Positions 40,545 to 47,385 of a DNA stretch of 64,000 nucleotides are shown here, one piece after another; within the stretch, counting starts at the first letter, position 1, and each line of letters begins with the position of its first letter. The stretch comes from Candidatus Melainabacteria bacterium 17Bon1m (GTDB lineage Bacteria > Cyanobacteriota > Vampirovibrionia > Obscuribacterales > Obscuribacteraceae): the NCBI GenBank assembly GCA_032128875.1, contig JAVLKG010000008.1:32001-96000 (forward strand), in the 5' to 3' direction. The notes beneath the pieces were generated by a model. It ran no database searches. It saw only the letters and a program-made list of their open reading frames with translations, and was not told where the DNA came from. A program made the position numbers and the translations under genes.

Positions 40545-41096
40545 ATGAAAACACATCTAGCAAACGTTCTGGACCTTGAATTGAGCTGCTATCCCGACGG
40601 AAAGTTTCCCGACGACGAGCGGCAAGAAATCATCGAGGTCGGCTTGACCACGGTCGATCTCCACAAGATGGAGATTGTCGCCGTGCGCAGCATCCCGGTG
40701 ATACCGACGATGTCCTCCATCAGCCCGTTTTGTGCTGAGCTGACCGGATGGACGCAAGCGGCGCTCAACAAGCAAGGTGTGCCCTTCGAAGAAGCGGTTC
40801 GCCGCCTCGTCGAAAAGCACGGTTCCAAAAACCGGCTGTTGGTCACGGATTCCGCTGGTGATCGCAAGTTCTTCGATTGGCAGTGTGCAATGTTCGGCAA
40901 GGCGTCGCCTTTCGGCGACTACGAGCAGAACGTCTCGGTGCTCTTCTCCATCTACACGGAAATCTTCCAGAACGTGTCTTTGGACGACAAGCTGGAAAAA
41001 CTCGGACTCAAGTTCGAGGGACGCCGGCACCGCGCCGACAGCGACTCAATGAACATCGCCCGGCTGCTCATCGAACTGAAGCGCCGCATGCGTTGA
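40545..41096 (+). CDS. DEDDh 3'-5' exonuclease (ERI1/KapD-like)
   Basis: LDLELS, EIIEVG, FCAELTG and FEGRRHRADSD motifs; start ATG 40545 after GAAAGG. Confidence 0.9.
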   Translation: MKTHLANVLDLELSCYPDGKFPDDERQEIIEVGLTTVDLHKMEIVAVRSIPVIPTMSSISPFCAELTGWTQAALNKQGVPFEEAVRRLVEKHGSKNRLLVTDSAGDRKFFDWQCAMFGKASPFGDYEQNVSVLFSIYTEIFQNVSLDDKLEKLGLKFEGRRHRADSDSMNIARLLIELKRRMR

Positions 41097-41149
41097 AAAA
41101 CGCTCTGCGACGCAGCAGCAAACGAGGTCTCTTAATGACCAGTGAAAGA

Positions 41150-41197
41150 ACAGACTGTGCGGCATAAACAACCGCACAGTCTGTCATCTTTCTTTCT
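41150..41197 (+). terminator. Terminator-like hairpin after the exonuclease gene
   Basis: 13-bp perfect stem ACAGACTGTGCGG/CCGCACAGTCTGT followed by a pyrimidine tract. Confidence 0.7.
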
Positions 41198-41913
41198 CGT
41201 CCAGCCCAACTACTGCATATCATAAGGCACCAGATACGCCACCACACAAACAGCTATTTTTTGAAGTCAAAGGTGCGGCTGTACTTCGGATTGCTTTTCG
41301 ACCCAGCCACTGTGACGAACCTTGCGTTTCTACTGCGCATCGAAAGCGGTTGTAGGCGTTTTATTAGAGCTGCCGCCAGCTCGCGAAGGGATTAACAGCC
41401 TCTCACAAACGCGCTAGCCGTTGCGGTGCTGTTTAATGCACAGACCGATTTGGTCGCCGACCCGAGAACCTCACCCAGGCTGCGCTAGTGCTTCACAGCT
41501 TCAAATTTCGACGTACTTTCCCCCCTGCGCTCATTAGCGCAATTTCATTAAAAGCTACCCCAAAAGGAGGGTGGTCAAGAACTGAGAAGTACTACCACCA
41601 CTCATGATCGAGGTGTAGATCTGCTTATTTGGTTTTACTCTGACACTGACTTTTAGTCATACGGCTATTAGAGCTACCTAAGGTTGCTAAATGTCTTACG
41701 TAAGAGTTAGGGTCAAAGCACGTTTTATAAACACTCTTTCATTCCGGAAAAACCCAACCACTCTTCGTTTCAACTTTCATCCAACACCAATTCAGCCCTG
41801 CCAGTTCAGCTCTTTTGCTGTGGCGGGGTTTTCCGTCTCTTGTTGCAGCCCTCACTTAGAGCATTTTGACGCTCAGTTTGGGACCGCAACTACCAGACCT
41901 GAATGAGAACAAC

Positions 41914-42663
41914 ATGGCGAATCTACCCCTGACAGTTCGCTGGTACATGTTCGTGAATGACATCATTCGCGTCTATGCCAGATTGATCCTCAGGCGCCTC
42001 GACAAAATAGACTTCGGAGCTCTGCTCGGTGGACCCGGTTCAGGAAAAGGCACCCTTGGCGTTCGCCTCGGACCTCTCCTGCGACTGATTCTGCTCGGCA
42101 TGGGCGACGTTCTCAGGCGCGAGGATATCCAGAAAGAGTACGGGGACAGACTAGCTGCGATGAGCAAAGGCGGCTTGTTGCCCGACTCCCTGGTTCACGA
42201 AATTCTCGAGCGAGAGCTCACCAAGCCTGCATATGCTCGTGGCGCCATCTTCGATGGAATTCCGCGAACGCTGAGGCAAGCGCTTCTTCTGGAGCGTTCG
42301 CTCGCATGGCGGGGTCTTCGTTTGAACTGGGTGGTGCTGCTCGATATCGATGAAGAAGAGCTCGTGGAGCGACTGACGCATCGACGCACCTGTCCCAACC
42401 CCAATTGCCGCCGCACCTATCACCTCATCAGCAATCGTCCGAAAGTCGAGGGAATCTGCGATGAGTGCAAAACTCCGCTGATTCAGCGCAAGGATGACGT
42501 GCGTGAGGTGATTGTGGAGCGGCTTCGCAAATACCGGGAGGAAATCACTCCTCTCTGTAGCTTCTACAAGGCGCGCGGCGTTTTGTATGAAGTAAAGCCG
42601 GCCAAAGGGAGCACTCCGGAAGAAGTGTTCAACTTGGCCAAATCTGTCCTAACGAGCAACTAG
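41914..42663 (+). CDS. adk: Adenylate kinase family protein with zinc-binding LID and N-terminal extension
   Basis: GGPGSGKGT P-loop, GDVLR, GGLLPD, DGIPRT, CPNPNC...CDEC and QRKDD motifs. Confidence 0.88.
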   Translation: MANLPLTVRWYMFVNDIIRVYARLILRRLDKIDFGALLGGPGSGKGTLGVRLGPLLRLILLGMGDVLRREDIQKEYGDRLAAMSKGGLLPDSLVHEILERELTKPAYARGAIFDGIPRTLRQALLLERSLAWRGLRLNWVVLLDIDEEELVERLTHRRTCPNPNCRRTYHLISNRPKVEGICDECKTPLIQRKDDVREVIVERLRKYREEITPLCSFYKARGVLYEVKPAKGSTPEEVFNLAKSVLTSN

Positions 42664-42673
42664 GAGAAAGACC

Positions 42674-42895
42674 ATGGCTCGCACTTTCCATGTCCTCGCC
42701 GATGACGGCAGCATCGACAAGCGTGCAACCCGCGCTCGCCGCCTGCACGGACCCGGTGCCAAGCGCGTTTCCACGCGTCGCAGCACCATCTGGTCCAACA
42801 TCTCCGGCCTCGGTCCCGACGGCAAGGTGCGTCGCGCCAACGGCAGCATCGACCACGCGGCAACGCGTGAAGTCGAGCGCGGCTGGCACGACTAA
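42674..42895 (+). CDS. DGSIDK-repeat protein A (73 aa, 2 repeats)
   Basis: AGGAGA RBS overlapping the adk stop; FHVLADDGSIDKRATRARRLHG and NGSIDHAATRE. Confidence 0.85.
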   Translation: MARTFHVLADDGSIDKRATRARRLHGPGAKRVSTRRSTIWSNISGLGPDGKVRRANGSIDHAATREVERGWHD

Positions 42896-43190
42896 GCAGT
42901 GACTGGCGTCGAAGCGAAGGAGAAGGTTGCCCACCCGATCCCCGCTTCGGCGCGCAGCCTGCGGTTTGCTCAAAAATTTCGACGGTGAGTGCAGATACCT
43001 GGTTTGCACTTGCCCGGAAGACGCTGACTCTTGCGATGCCGGCAACGGCTCCACGCAGGTGGTCGGCGTATGTGGAGTACCGGTTCGCATGTTGCGTTCC
43101 GGGTTGGTTACAAAACCGACTAAGGGAGCCGCTTACAGGAAGCAGCTTACCTGGTCATGACAGCCCACTTGGGCGAAATGGAGAACTGTT
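42896..43190 (+). ncRNA. Candidate structured leader RNA, copy 1
   Basis: Collinear homology with 43596-43985; conserved loops on stems of different sequence. Confidence 0.6.
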
Positions 43191-43595
43191 ATGACGAACA
43201 TCAACACCACCAATGGCAGCAACGACCTCATCCCCGGCACCAACCTGACCTGGGCTGACGCCGCCGCGATGCACAAGGACTACCTGCGCGACCAGCGTTG
43301 CAAGGGTACCCGCCGCAGCCGCCGCACCCGCACGAACCGTTCGAGCAAGAACGACGGGTTCTACGTGCTGGCGGAGGACGGCAGCATCGACAAGCAGGCC
43401 ACCCGCGAGCGCCGCCTCTTCGGACGCGACGACCGTCAGGTGACCGTGCACCGTGCGCCGCAGGTCGACACGCTGACTTCCGATTGGGACGGGTCGTACT
43501 CGTTCCGCCCGGACGGCAGCATCGACAAGGTCGCCACCCGCGAGCGTCGCCTCTTCGGTGAGCCGGAGAGCTACCTCGCGAGCCTGCTGAACTAA
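43191..43595 (+). CDS. DGSIDK-repeat protein B (134 aa, 2 repeats)
   Basis: GGAG RBS; FYVLAEDGSIDKQATRERRLFG and DWDGSYSFRPDGSIDKVATRERRLFGEP. Confidence 0.88.
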   Translation: MTNINTTNGSNDLIPGTNLTWADAAAMHKDYLRDQRCKGTRRSRRTRTNRSSKNDGFYVLAEDGSIDKQATRERRLFGRDDRQVTVHRAPQVDTLTSDWDGSYSFRPDGSIDKVATRERRLFGEPESYLASLLN

Positions 43596-43985
43596 GCAAG
43601 TGAAGTTAGCACCGGAGCGTTGGAAGGGCTGCCCGCCTGACCGCGCTCCGGTGCGCTTCTTGCTGTTCGCCCCAGAATTCACGGCAGAGCATTGACGCGC
43701 ATCAGCGCTCGGCTTTGCCCAAAGAGTTTCGAAGCACAAGCAGCTACCTGAGCTGTGCGTGCCCGGAAACGCTGATAGCGGAGATGCCTGCAGCTCTTCG
43801 CTCCAGCGTTTGCAGCGTCACCGGGTGGTGGCGTTGCAAAACCATGACGTGGATGTTTCTGCGTTGTGGAAAGCCGGTTCACTTGTTGTGAGCCGGTTTA
43901 TTTGGTGAACCCGACTAAGGGAGACGCACTCAGGATGCGCCTTACCTGGTCATGACAGCCCACTTGGGCACATGGAGAAACTGTT
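43596..43985 (+). ncRNA. Candidate structured leader RNA, copy 2
   Basis: Same ordered motifs as copy 1 with two insertions; 29-nt identical block at 43941-43969. Confidence 0.6.
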
Positions 43986-44495
43986 ATGACGAACATCGAA
44001 AACACCACTGGCAACAGCAGCATCAGCGGCGCCGAGCACAAGCACTGGCTCCGTGAACTGCGCATCGATCGCAGCCTCGGTCTCGACCGCGGTGTGCGCA
44101 ACGGCAGCAAGAAGCGTCGGAACAACGAGGCGACTCGTCCGTTCCACGTCCTGGCCGCCGACGGCAGCATCGACAAGCGCGCCACCCGCGAACGCCGCCT
44201 CTTCGGACCGGACGCCACCCCCGTGGTCACCTCCGGCTCGGACGAGAACATCGGCGCCGACTGGGATGGCCGCTACGTCCTGAAGGACGACGGCTCCATC
44301 GACAAGCAGGCCACGCGCGAGCGTCGGCTGTTCGGTGAGCCCGAAGACCTGTACGGCCGTAACGCTGCCGACTACTTCTTCGGCGACGAAGAGGGCGATG
44401 CCGACAGCAGCTTCCACGTCATCGACGAGGACGGCTGCATCGACAAGCAGGCCACGCGCGAGCGCCGGCTGTTCGGTTCCAGCCTCTGGAACTGA
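43986..44495 (+). CDS. DGSIDK-repeat protein C (169 aa, 3 repeats)
   Basis: GGAG RBS; three DG(S/C)IDKxATRERRLFG units. Confidence 0.88.
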   Translation: MTNIENTTGNSSISGAEHKHWLRELRIDRSLGLDRGVRNGSKKRRNNEATRPFHVLAADGSIDKRATRERRLFGPDATPVVTSGSDENIGADWDGRYVLKDDGSIDKQATRERRLFGEPEDLYGRNAADYFFGDEEGDADSSFHVIDEDGCIDKQATRERRLFGSSLWN

Positions 44496-44571
44496 TACCT
44501 GAAGGGCGTCGGCACTCGCGGACTTGATGCGCAAACGCATTAAGCTCTGCGAGCACCGGCGCTGGTAGCCT

Positions 44572-44608
44572 TGAAAGGCGAGGGTCCTTCCCCTCGTCTT
44601 TCATTTTT
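44572..44608 (+). terminator. Rho-independent terminator ending the repeat-protein cluster
   Basis: TGAAAGGCGAGGG/CCCTCGTCTTTCA stem followed by TTTTT. Confidence 0.8.
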
Positions 44609-44752
44609 AGGGCATTACCTACTGTATGCCATCGTAATTTGAGCAAGAAAAAGAAGCAGGCGACCTGTCCGAGCATTTTCAGCTCGGGACAAATCGCCCA
44701 CTTCAAGACCATTCTCGCTAGTCGTTGTTACGACTAACGGGAATGCAAGGGA

Positions 44753-45334
44753 TTACTTGCGCTTCTGCGTGCGAGGCTTGTCGTCGAAACACGCAGTGCA
44801 CACCTTGGTGCTCGGCTTCAGCCCGCCCAGGATCTTCGCCTCATCTTGCACTCGGCAGAGAATCTGAATCTCTTCGAGCTTGAGGCTGTCACCCTCCAGC
44901 TGCGCGAAGACGTGGGCGCGACAGGCAAGCGCGCGAACGAGTTCGCCGATGTCACCGCTGAACTGCTCGCCCGTGAGCATCCGTGCGATCTTGCGGCATT
45001 CCTGTTTTGCGGCTTGCTTGAGCGCAAGAGAAAAAATACCGCAGGCCACCCGAATATCTCGCCAGGAAGATTTCGGGAAGCCGGCGAAGATCAGCTCGGC
45101 ACGCGCGGCGACGGTATTCTCCGGAGGCGACACACGTTCGTCTGCGCCCGCCGGGAGCATGTTGATCGCGTCATACAACGGGCCCAGACCGGCACGCGCA
45201 TTGAGCACGACGAAAAGATCGATCTTGTCGGGGTCGAACTCGTGTTCGTGAAAAACGCTCAGACAGGGAATCACCTTGATTTCGACGGACGAGCGAAGAG
45301 CAGCGATTGAAGCGGGTTTCTGATTGTCAGTCAT
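44753..45334 (-). CDS. Hypothetical protein
   Basis: 193 aa ORF with AGGAGA RBS. Confidence 0.7.
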   Translation of the reverse strand: MTDNQKPASIAALRSSVEIKVIPCLSVFHEHEFDPDKIDLFVVLNARAGLGPLYDAINMLPAGADERVSPPENTVAARAELIFAGFPKSSWRDIRVACGIFSLALKQAAKQECRKIARMLTGEQFSGDIGELVRALACRAHVFAQLEGDSLKLEEIQILCRVQDEAKILGGLKPSTKVCTACFDDKPRTQKRK

Positions 45335-45792
45335 GACTTTCTCCTATTCTCGTGACTCGTTTCACAGCCGGAACTGCGGTTGGGAAGCTAGAAAAAGCGT
45401 TGCAAATGGAGCTTGCGGGTGCTGCGAAAAAATTCCGGTCGGTGAAAACGAGATGTGGCAAAACCCTATGAAATCGGGCTGGGAAAGCGCAATCGAACCA
45501 AAGTATGATTGCCGATCTCGCGCTAAGTCGACCGCGATAAATGACTGGTTGCTCATGCACTGGCGAACGAACTTCAATGCTCAAAGACCGCACTGCGCCA
45601 GCCCCGGTTCTCGACAAGAGCTAACTGCAACCCTTGAAGACCAATACTTTGGGACTATGATGCAAGCTGCGCCATAATACCCAGGTATGATTTCGCCGCG
45701 CGAAGCTTTTCGCAAGTTAGCGCCAGCTCTTGACGGGCATGCAAAACCCGTCTTGCCTCGATTTTCTATTAGAATGGCTTTGTGTGGAAGGA

Positions 45793-47385
45793 ATGGACGC
45801 CGTGCGCGAACATCAGATCGTCATCAGCCTCAAACCTGAGCAGTTTCAGGAAGTGCAAAAACAAGCTCGGGCAGCTGGAGCTCAGTCTGTTGGCGCCTTC
45901 GTGCGGCAAAATCTGCTCAACTTCCTGGGATTGGAAGAATCGATCAACGCCGGTAAAGCCTCTCAAATGTCTCCCTCTGTCCAAGCTGACCCGGACTGGC
46001 GGTTTATCGCCGGAGAATTGCGCCGCCTGCACCGCGAATTGAAAGTCTTGTCCAGTGAGGCAACTGTATCGAACACCCTGGTGACCGACATAGCCGGTTC
46101 GAACAGTTCGATCAGTGGTCCTACCACTGCGACCGGAGGTCCTCTTCTGGCTTCCACAGTGGCTTTGAGCGAACCTTACAGAGAGCCGGTGCCGGAATAC
46201 AGCCAGCCGGCACAGCATGAAAACTTCCTTACAGATGGCGCGCCGATAGCTGTCGATGACTATTCGGACAATCTCGACGATTCGCTCATTCTTCCCCCAG
46301 CGCATGGTATCACCGGCGGCGGAACGACTCCTTTCTTCCAGACTCCCACGATGCCCAGTCGATCGCCTTTCGGCATGCCGATGTCTTCAGGACTTCCACT
46401 TTCATCGCCTTTCTCGCAGCATACGTTCATGCCGAATATCTCTCCTCTGCCGAGCGATTTGGGCATAGCGGCTCAAGCCCCGGCAAAGCAAGAGTTCACC
46501 GTCGACGAAGGAGATCCGGTCGAAACGACGAAGATTGAGGCAAAACCACAGCAGCCGGCGGAAACGCAACCAATAGCGCAACCCACAGCAACTGAGACCG
46601 CTGCAGCCACGCCCCAAACATCAGCCCAGAGCGCCTCTCAGCTAATAACTCAACCGACATCGCAAGCTGCGTTTCAAACCGCATCTCAAGACCCTCAAGT
46701 TACACAAGCTGCGCAACCCGTTTCACAACCAGACCAACGACCTGCAGCAGCAGCCCAGCTTCCTCCTGCAAATGCTCCCCAGCAACCTCCGGCAGTTCAG
46801 CAACCTGTTGCCCCACCGCAAGCAGCAGCACCTGTACAACCGGAAGCGCCGACTATCACACCTGTGCAAACTCGTTCACAGATTGCTTCTCAAACTCCAG
46901 CTGAGCAGCCAGGAGCATTCGCGCCACAGAAAGACGACATGGAAGTTCTTGCAGACAGAGCGTTTGCAATTTCACCAAGACTTGGCGCAATTGAGCCGGA
47001 AGTTACACTGCAACCGGCACAAAGCCGAAGCTTCGCCGACACTCTTGAAGAATTGCTCGACGCCGGCCTAATCAACCAGGTTTTGTCTCAGACCGAAGTT
47101 GAAGAGGACAATCCTTACGCCGGAGAAGTTGAAGCACCTCCGGAGGATGACCTGGTTCAGGTAATCGTTCAGGAAGTCGACGTACCCTCGCCCGACGCCA
47201 CAGATAGCAAAAACGCCGAAGAGTCCGATAACACGAGCAATAGCGAGCCTGAGGACAGTCAGAATGATCCGCCTGCCGCGATTCAACATGACCCTCCGCC
47301 ACCGCCTCGCCCAATTGGCGGCGCCGATCAATCTGGCGAAGACGAGCCACCCAAGCCACCTCCGCGCCGCAGAAAGTTGATGTAA
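45793..47385 (+). CDS. Pro/Gln/Ala-rich, largely disordered protein with N-terminal ribbon-helix-helix-like segment
   Basis: QIVISLKPEQFQEVQKQARAAGAQSVGAFVR followed by a long low-complexity region. Confidence 0.75.
   Translation: MDAVREHQIVISLKPEQFQEVQKQARAAGAQSVGAFVRQNLLNFLGLEESINAGKASQMSPSVQADPDWRFIAGELRRLHRELKVLSSEATVSNTLVTDIAGSNSSISGPTTATGGPLLASTVALSEPYREPVPEYSQPAQHENFLTDGAPIAVDDYSDNLDDSLILPPAHGITGGGTTPFFQTPTMPSRSPFGMPMSSGLPLSSPFSQHTFMPNISPLPSDLGIAAQAPAKQEFTVDEGDPVETTKIEAKPQQPAETQPIAQPTATETAAATPQTSAQSASQLITQPTSQAAFQTASQDPQVTQAAQPVSQPDQRPAAAAQLPPANAPQQPPAVQQPVAPPQAAAPVQPEAPTITPVQTRSQIASQTPAEQPGAFAPQKDDMEVLADRAFAISPRLGAIEPEVTLQPAQSRSFADTLEELLDAGLINQVLSQTEVEEDNPYAGEVEAPPEDDLVQVIVQEVDVPSPDATDSKNAEESDNTSNSEPEDSQNDPPAAIQHDPPPPPRPIGGADQSGEDEPPKPPPRRRKLM

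Follow-up and report, generated by a model that had tools for sequence, protein, structure and literature searches.

A conserved intercistronic leader RNA with a sequestered start codon, derived from the 3' end of an adenylate kinase gene, as a probable translational control element in one genus of Obscuribacterales

Introduction

Translational coupling through RNA unfolding has been described for the coat-lysis pair of phage MS2, genes VII-IX of phage f1, and rpmI-rplT of Escherichia coli (reviewed in PMC12548453). Two relatives of the element analyzed here look alike: in genome G088, from the same genus as our sequence, and in the sister genus g33, the downstream start region pairs with the last codons of the upstream open reading frame (ORF), and the ribosome-binding site (RBS) lies right next to the stop codon or overlaps with it. 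The copies in our sequence differ from those systems in that they lack an upstream ORF, the hairpin having been carried into a noncoding leader by duplication.

Protein-bound translational operators, such as the MS2 replicase operator hairpin and ribosomal-protein leaders, offer another comparison. As in these, a hairpin holds the start codon, the invariant positions exceed the needs of pairing, and arginine-rich products are encoded downstream; the present helix, however, is longer, its internal loop is large, and the binding protein is only a candidate. With riboswitch expression platforms that sequester the RBS or AUG, the element shares a conserved structured leader, a locked start region, and possible mutually exclusive pairings, whereas it has no recognizable aptamer or Rfam match, its RBS is exposed, and its platform is more conserved than the part upstream. 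RNA thermometers (ROSE, fourU, and the cyanobacterial hsp17 leader) likewise place an AU-rich helix with G.U pairs and an internal loop over the start region, but the element is predicted not to melt up to 55°C and is invariant in sequence. Leaders of the CsrA/RsmA type resemble the element in their GGA motifs, of which it has one in a hairpin loop (A/UCAGGA(A/U)G) and another, about 44 nt away, in the RBS (UGGAGA), but CsrA (PF02599) was not found in the 93%-complete genome that carries the element.

The sequence analyzed, here called the window, is a stretch of 64,000 nt that forms part of a 7.55-Mb, 93%-complete metagenome-assembled genome (contig C8, 32001-96000). A preliminary description, made from the letters of the window, had flagged 43116-43193 and 43911-43988 as two copies of a candidate translational switch; these are the last 78 nt ahead of the start codons of the second and third of three small genes. 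We judge it somewhat more probable than its negation that these 78 nt form the 3' platform of a leader RNA, conserved, structured, and intercistronic, by which translation of the repeat-protein gene behind it is controlled. The evidence fits a lineage-specific translational control element that is absent from Rfam and would make a new candidate cis-regulatory RNA motif. The reach of this finding is limited, as the element is restricted to one genus; it does draw attention to a protein family of unknown function and to a kinase paralog in the Obscuribacterales, poorly known nonphotosynthetic relatives of the cyanobacteria.

Gene cluster and repeat proteins

The cluster, with its leaders and its terminator-like site, lies on the forward strand. 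It begins with adk2, an adenylate-kinase paralog at 41866-42663 whose start codon is uncertain (Pfam ADK, 1.3e-29; ADK_lid, 1e-13). A second adk on contig C10 (136377-136730) is 39% identical to adk2; the window adk2 is the longer paralog, with an N-terminal extension, and the open frames of its orthologs in the genus run from 256 to 326 aa. Directly after adk2, with no leader between them, comes gene 0 (42674-42895; 73 aa), a short member of the repeat family (DGSIDKRATRARRLHG) that appears in the ORF list and has the same synteny in genome G089. Gene 1 (43191-43595; 134 aa) contains two DGSIDKxATRERRLFG repeats and gene 2 (43986-44495; 169 aa) three. Genes 0, 1, and 2 are tandem paralogs that encode small hydrophilic proteins with these repeats and a C-terminal SSxWN. 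Across the family of genomes, a small gene usually begins within about 10 nt of the end of adk2, with its RBS overlapping the stop codon.

Searches of the repeat family against Pfam gave nothing above cut-off, and a search of the ESM Atlas with a repeat protein gave no usable match. Among 5.8 billion clustered proteins, 22 relatives were recovered at E <= 1e-3, all of them unnamed or hypothetical and all in records of the Obscuribacterales/Melainabacteria type. The AlphaFold model of the repeat protein is poor (pLDDT 61, pTM 0.23); with low confidence, it suggests that each repeat may form a beta-hairpin followed by an arginine-rich helix, with disordered linkers between the repeats. Farther along the window lies a 551-aa ORF (45730-47385) with a very high content of proline, glutamine, and alanine, and a counterpart also sits beside the cluster in genome G090 (locus L037, 2-982, reverse strand).

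No sigma-70-like promoter was found in 41200-44800, and the sole strong intrinsic-terminator-like site of the cluster (44572-44603; a 13-pair stem followed by a T run) stands after the last gene, so the leaders are probably intercistronic within one mRNA. This arrangement suggests that adk2, gene 0, gene 1, and gene 2 may constitute a single operon. GC-rich hairpins also occur straight after the stop codons of gene 0 (42908-42955; CGAAGCG...CGCTTCG) and gene 1 (43607-43655; CACCGGAGCG...CGCTCCGGTG); lacking a good T tract, they may be partial terminators or stabilizers within the operon.

Architecture of the leader

Rather than standing free, the platform is the 3' end of a leader that measures 295 to 390 nt in the window. 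Leader 1 (42896-43190) is a structured intercistronic RNA and, by alignments, consensus folds, and blastn and tblastn comparison with the intact adk2 of G088, a noncoding duplicate of the 3' end of adk2; leader 2 occupies 43596-43985. As extracted from the copies in all genomes, leaders span 224 to 315 nt, and the length of their middle part is hypervariable. Three hairpins precede the platform: Pa (42977-43020 in leader 1, from RNAalifold), with the loop ACCUG at 42997-43001, invariant as CCUG; P0 (43078-43104); and P1 (43123-43152), with the invariant loop CAGGA at 43136-43140. Their counterparts in leader 2 are Pa at 43727-43769 (ACCUG, 43746-43750), P0 at 43872-43898, and P1 at 43918-43947 (CAGGA, 43931-43935). 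By eye, we further recognized a stem ACGCUG...CAGCGU and variable hairpins.

These stems covary. Changes on both sides affect 8 of 11 pairs of the upper stem of Pa (its CCUG being kept in 16/16 copies), 6 of 11 in P0, and 6 of 10 in P1, where 94.7% of the cells are paired. P0 and P1 together have 95% of cells paired, versus 33 to 41% when the partners are slid, and 0 of 500 shuffles equaled the observed score; for Pa, P0, and P1 together, 21 of 52 pairs changed on both sides and 94.3% of cells are paired, versus 35 to 44% with slid partners, again with 0/500 shuffles as high, all of these counts being made on the same alignments that yielded the structure and on copies from related, hence not independent, genomes.

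The preliminary description had assigned the CAGG loop, the downstream CCTG, and the upstream ACCTG to competing contacts. All three elements are located as it said, CAGG in the 7-nt loop of P1 and CCTG next, at 43150-43153. A CAGG/CCUG pseudoknot is unlikely, though: CCU forms the 3' base of P1 and is paired to AGG (43123-43125) in 16 to 17 of the 17 copies, only 2 to 3 nt separate the P1 stem from CCU, and g33, where CAGGA is retained, has GUCUUAG in place of CCUGG and matching changes in the 5' strand of P1. For the other proposed contact, CCUG of Pa and CAGG of P1 are complementary in 16/16 copies and never vary. A kissing loop between Pa and P1 is possible, and its very invariance makes covariation uninformative on it. 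As for the upstream TGCCC (43011-43015), which had been taken for a loop able to pair with the GGGC beside the RBS, the consensus fold places it in the 3' strand of an extended Pa stem (pairs 38-67, 39-66, and 34-69), and homologs vary here (GCCC, GCUC, GUUC, GUCC, and GCCA), which leaves the TGCCC/GGGC pairing weak.

The start-codon platform

In the DNA of copy 1, TCATGACA (43155-43162) stands opposite TGTTATGA (43187-43194), which includes the ATG at 43191-43193. In RNA, the 5' strand UCAUGACA and the 3' strand UGUUAUGA form P2, a helix of eight pairs, one of them G.U, with a ninth G-C pair at 43154/43195; over its 8 to 9 bp, it pairs the AUG and its flanks with sequence 29 nt upstream. Stacked on P2 inside it is a 4-bp hairpin, P3 (43163-43174), of the form GCCC-NNNN-GGGC, whose stem is invariant and whose loop varies (in copy 1, GCCC at 43163-43166, ACTT, and GGGC at 43171-43174). 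The Shine-Dalgarno GGAG (43180-43183) falls in a 12-nt internal loop. The platform of copy 2 (43950-43989) is the same at an offset of +795, with P2 at 43950-43957 and 43982-43989, P3 at 43958-43969, GGAG at 43974-43977, and the AUG at 43986-43988. The helix first proposed from the letters, enclosing the GCCC/GGGC hairpin and the GGAG, is therefore present in both copies, and the elements attributed to 43911-43988 recur there.

With ViennaRNA, the P2/P3 fold was both the minimum free energy (MFE) and the centroid structure of both copies in contexts of 46, 83, and 116 nt. The 46-nt platform alone has a predicted free energy of -16.3 kcal/mol, with z scores of -3.97 and -3.15 in the two copies, and only 1 of 200 shuffles matched its stability in each. 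Partition-function accessibilities between 10 and 55°C predict the AUG to be 0 to 7% unpaired in both copies (2 to 3% in copy 1) and the RBS to be 65 to 85% unpaired (67 to 85% in copy 1). In silico, then, the start region is sequestered even when nothing upstream is translated, the AUG being paired in the MFE folds as well.

One alternative pairing rivals the base of P2. Once the 3' strand of P2 is blocked, GAC (43118-43120) pairs with GUC (43154-43156) over 3 bp, which lengthens P1 at a cost of about 1.8 kcal/mol in the consensus fold; by eye, this pairing is contiguous in g33.

At the DNA level, GUCAUGAC in P2 is a perfect 8-bp palindrome. It also contains an upstream AUG (43157-43159) within the invariant helix, in frame with the gene in 5 of the 17 copies, where it would add 11 residues (MTAHTGKWRTV...); the other 12 copies do not keep the frame.

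Conservation and distribution

When 104 genomes of the family were searched by blastn, 8 of the 12 other genomes in the genus proved to carry the element; the window's own genome has just two copies. The leader was seen only upstream of genes of the RERRLFG-repeat family in this one genus of Obscuribacterales, as 17 copies in 8 of its 13 genomes and another 11 in metagenome contigs. Our alignment comprises the 17 full copies from 8 genomes, including the window's own; one row (G088_c1) is the coding end of a kinase gene. P2, the P3 stem, the RBS, and both loops (ACCUG and CAGGA) are identical in 17/17 copies, and 33 of the 49 platform columns are invariant, whereas the first 21 nt of the coding sequence average 49% pairwise identity. 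To scan metagenomes, we used a pattern that fixed CAGGA, CCUGG, GCCC, GGGC, and GGAG and left both strands of P2 as N. Of the 24 loci that matched, 18 were rejected as GC-rich and unrelated; the 6 remaining loci hold 11 true copies, and in all 11 the P2 strands, the P3 stem, the RBS, and both loops are unchanged.

We built a covariance model, R1, from the 125-nt core. Among the other 36 genera of the family, R1 found nothing comparable except in g33 and one weak match (genome G055, 26.7 bits), which lies away from any kinase gene and was treated as chance; it found none in 120 sampled genomes from 10 other families of the class. An Rfam cmscan of 41000-46000 on both strands gave 0 matches at E <= 1, and no account of the element was seen among the papers listed for Obscuribacter adenylate kinase and for Melainabacteria riboswitches.

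For both window copies, the closest relative is the ortholog from a different genome and not the neighboring paralog, so their identity reflects purifying selection, not gene conversion. Because P2 and P3 do not vary within the genus, covariation has nothing to say about the start-codon helix, and the case for P2, read from sequence, consists of invariance, thermodynamics, and two variant forms only. In one variant, from G090, P3 and the internal loop are gone, the helix is kept, and an RBS, GAGGA, occupies the loop (-11.2 kcal/mol; z, -4.9). In the other, from g33, 9 of 10 pairs of the helix GUCAAAACAG/CUGUUAUGAC persist; there is one A.A mismatch, and A-U stands in place of the G.U. In G090, the variant leader, which has no GCCC/GGGC hairpin and keeps the start-codon helix, precedes a truncated 94-aa family member (L037, 1228-1512, reverse strand).

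Origin from the kinase gene

The leader core has a degenerate paralog in the last ~120 nt of adk2 together with the junction with gene 0 (42564-42685; R1, 39 bits; E, 6.8e-8). Besides this match in the window, R1 finds the 3' ends of intact adk2 genes in G085, G086, G089, G094, and G095 and in the g33 genomes G077 and G078, the scores ranging overall from 30 to 44 bits. In genome G088, the intact adk2 has an open frame of 308 codons (Pfam ADK, 5e-31; ADK_lid, 1.7e-12); the 5' strand of P2 together with P3 encodes the last nine residues of the kinase (LVMTALSGN), the stop codon overlaps the RBS, and the family gene begins 9 nt later. The 3' end of this gene matches all 15 of the noncoding leaders tested at 77 to 86% identity over ~90 to 119 nt (blastn E, 1e-10 to 3e-24), and colinear matches between the lid region of the G088 adk2 and the leaders extend the relationship (blastn E, 9e-5 and 3e-4; tblastn, 6e-5). 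These matches make it unlikely that the leaders and the kinase 3' ends do not share ancestry, and on sequence comparison we regard it as shown that the leader in its entirety arose by duplication of a 3' fragment of adk2 and has lost its coding capacity.

In g33, an intact adk2 (Pfam ADK, 3e-38) ends in GUCAAAACAGCCCUCCAGGGC-UAA, and a 120-aa gene starts within CUGUUAUGAC; the protein that it encodes has no detectable relation to the repeat family (hhalign probability, 0.2%). As the intact adk2 ends inside the helix in both G088 and g33, the helix predates the duplication. Within the genus, adk2 and the leaders occur together in 8/8 genomes, and G084, G087, G092, and G093 have neither; G090 has the variant leader, and adk2 was not found in its 83%-complete assembly. 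At the window's adk2-gene 0 junction, which has no family-type start, the helix has decayed (z, -0.9).

The origin of such a leader from coding sequence is new here, and the case is both unusual and well documented. It is also datable and stepwise: a coupling hairpin at a gene junction, along with ~300 nt of upstream coding sequence, was copied by tandem duplication, and the copied fragment ceased to code and was retained as RNA, as its compensatory stem changes and invariant platform indicate. The stages survive in living relatives as the coupled junction (G088 and g33), the decayed junction (adk2-gene 0 in the window), and the noncoding leaders.

Proposed mechanism and alternatives

In G088, G077, and G078, the upstream ORF takes in the 5' strand of the helix; in the window it does not, as the ORFs preceding the two helices stop 259 and 354 nt upstream of them. 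In the ancestral arrangement, on the RNA-unfolding model, ribosomes finishing adk2 would unwind the helix and couple the downstream gene to adk2; with the 5' strand inside the kinase ORF, as in G088 and g33, terminating ribosomes must unwind it. Tandem duplication would then have moved units of adk2 3' end plus gene downstream. Since no ORF covers the 5' strand of P2 in the window, P2 there would be a standing lock in need of some other input, with the 30S subunit predicted from the fold to dock on the exposed RBS and the start codon out of its reach. The invariant platform and the invariant loops of Pa and P1, beside stems that covary freely, point to sequence-specific recognition in trans. 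We therefore rank a protein first as the likely opener, with the arginine-rich repeat products as candidate partners; given the poor structural model of the repeat protein, RNA binding by these products is purely conjectural. An RNA rearrangement ranks second, for which the GAC/GUC pairing would be a candidate, and opening through transcript processing is possible. A lock of about -16 kcal/mol still wants its opener, so that the mechanism is incomplete. A bolder version, to which we give a rather low probability, would have the ex-coding fragment, from the kinase lid to the C terminus, kept by selection as a multihairpin sensor RNA whose loops and platform bind either its own arginine-rich products, in autoregulation, or a small molecule, thereby opening the inherited coupling hairpin.

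Several other explanations have to be set against the leader as a translational control element. The preliminary description had compared the pairings to an expression platform gated by a ligand or a protein. Of that proposal, the locked start codon, preserved in homologs beside a conserved structured RNA, has held up, and the ligand has gained nothing, there being no Rfam match at E <= 1 and no multihelix junction. In its full form, the ligand reading would have Pa, Pb, P0, and P1 fold into an aptamer, perhaps through contact between the loops of Pa and P1, with the ligand setting whether P2 forms. The long conserved leader, with its covarying stems and invariant loops and linkers, would suit it, as would the complementarity of those two loops in 16/16 copies and the cheap GAC/GUC alternative to the base of P2, and the neighboring kinase makes an adenine nucleotide an example of a ligand. 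Yet the hairpins stand in series with no closed junction, Rfam is silent, the middle part is of hypervariable length (leaders of 224 to 315 nt), the platform is more conserved than any putative aptamer, and the sequence is recent ex-coding DNA; the control of one lineage-specific family of unknown function also offers no apparent metabolite logic. We consider a riboswitch unlikely. Rather less probable again is a DNA operator, in which a dimeric transcription factor, acting as repressor or activator, would bind the palindrome GTCATGAC with its partial repeat TTATGAC, 32 nt farther on. The perfect 8-bp palindrome would suit such a site, as would invariance at positions where an RNA helix alone would allow compensatory change; but hairpins that covary as RNA precede it and so place it within the transcript, no promoter-like site is nearby, and in G088 and g33 it belongs to a coding gene or sits at the end of one. 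The invariant G.U, A-U in g33, suits RNA pairing, and no regulator gene was identified. That the helix is a thermometer, melting on warming to free the AUG, we hold to be very unlikely: its five A-U pairs, one G.U pair, and asymmetric internal loop, and small hydrophilic products that could conceivably be stress proteins, are outweighed by an AUG predicted to stay closed in both copies from 10 to 55°C, by the stability of the platform, and by its invariance, such elements being tolerant of sequence change.

Translation of an ORF within the leader might replace adk2 in its coupling role, its ribosome unwinding P2. The stop-start overlap AUGA is invariant, copy 1 has a 69-codon ORF (42985-43194) ending at that UGA, and every copy keeps at least 15 codons open in a frame that terminates at the UGA inside GGUCAUGA. 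In the frame that ends at AUGA, however, 10 of the 17 copies contain no ATG, GTG, or TTG. Open lengths span 15 to 202 codons and share no conserved start, the frame of the upstream AUG relative to the gene is 0 in 5 copies, 1 in 8, and 2 in 4, and both the P3 loop and the internal loop show 1-nt indels. A search of three frames in all 17 copies found no conserved ORF over the helix, and we give this explanation hardly any weight. Least probable of all is that the leader is a nonfunctional relic, a decaying kinase pseudogene fragment whose pairings are leftovers. Its sequence is demonstrably ex-coding, but 33/49 invariant platform columns and compensatory stem changes have been maintained across species whose adk2 proteins are 63 to 91% identical, the closer kinship of orthologs leaves gene conversion unable to explain the identity, and the window's own adk2-gene 0 junction, with no family-type start, did let its helix decay. 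Control by CsrA was considered and rejected: the motifs fit, with CAGGA in the P1 loop and GGAG as the RBS in 17/17 copies, but the PF02599 search, which recovered CsrA from 3 of the 14 named controls (E. coli, B. subtilis, and T. maritima), gave 0 matches in the window's 93%-complete genome (G000).

Recombinant copies and transcriptome contigs

In the RNA-labeled runs X2 and X3, the locus was found in one 7,151-nt contig each, and the metatranscriptome runs X17 and X18 yielded pieces of relatives as contigs, in both cases as evidence of presence only. Run X18 (43168 to 43979) and locus L005 of genome G085 have a single gene in which a P1 of the leader 1 type is joined to a coding region of the gene 2 type; the joint lies within the invariant platform and looks like the product of unequal recombination between the repeated leaders.
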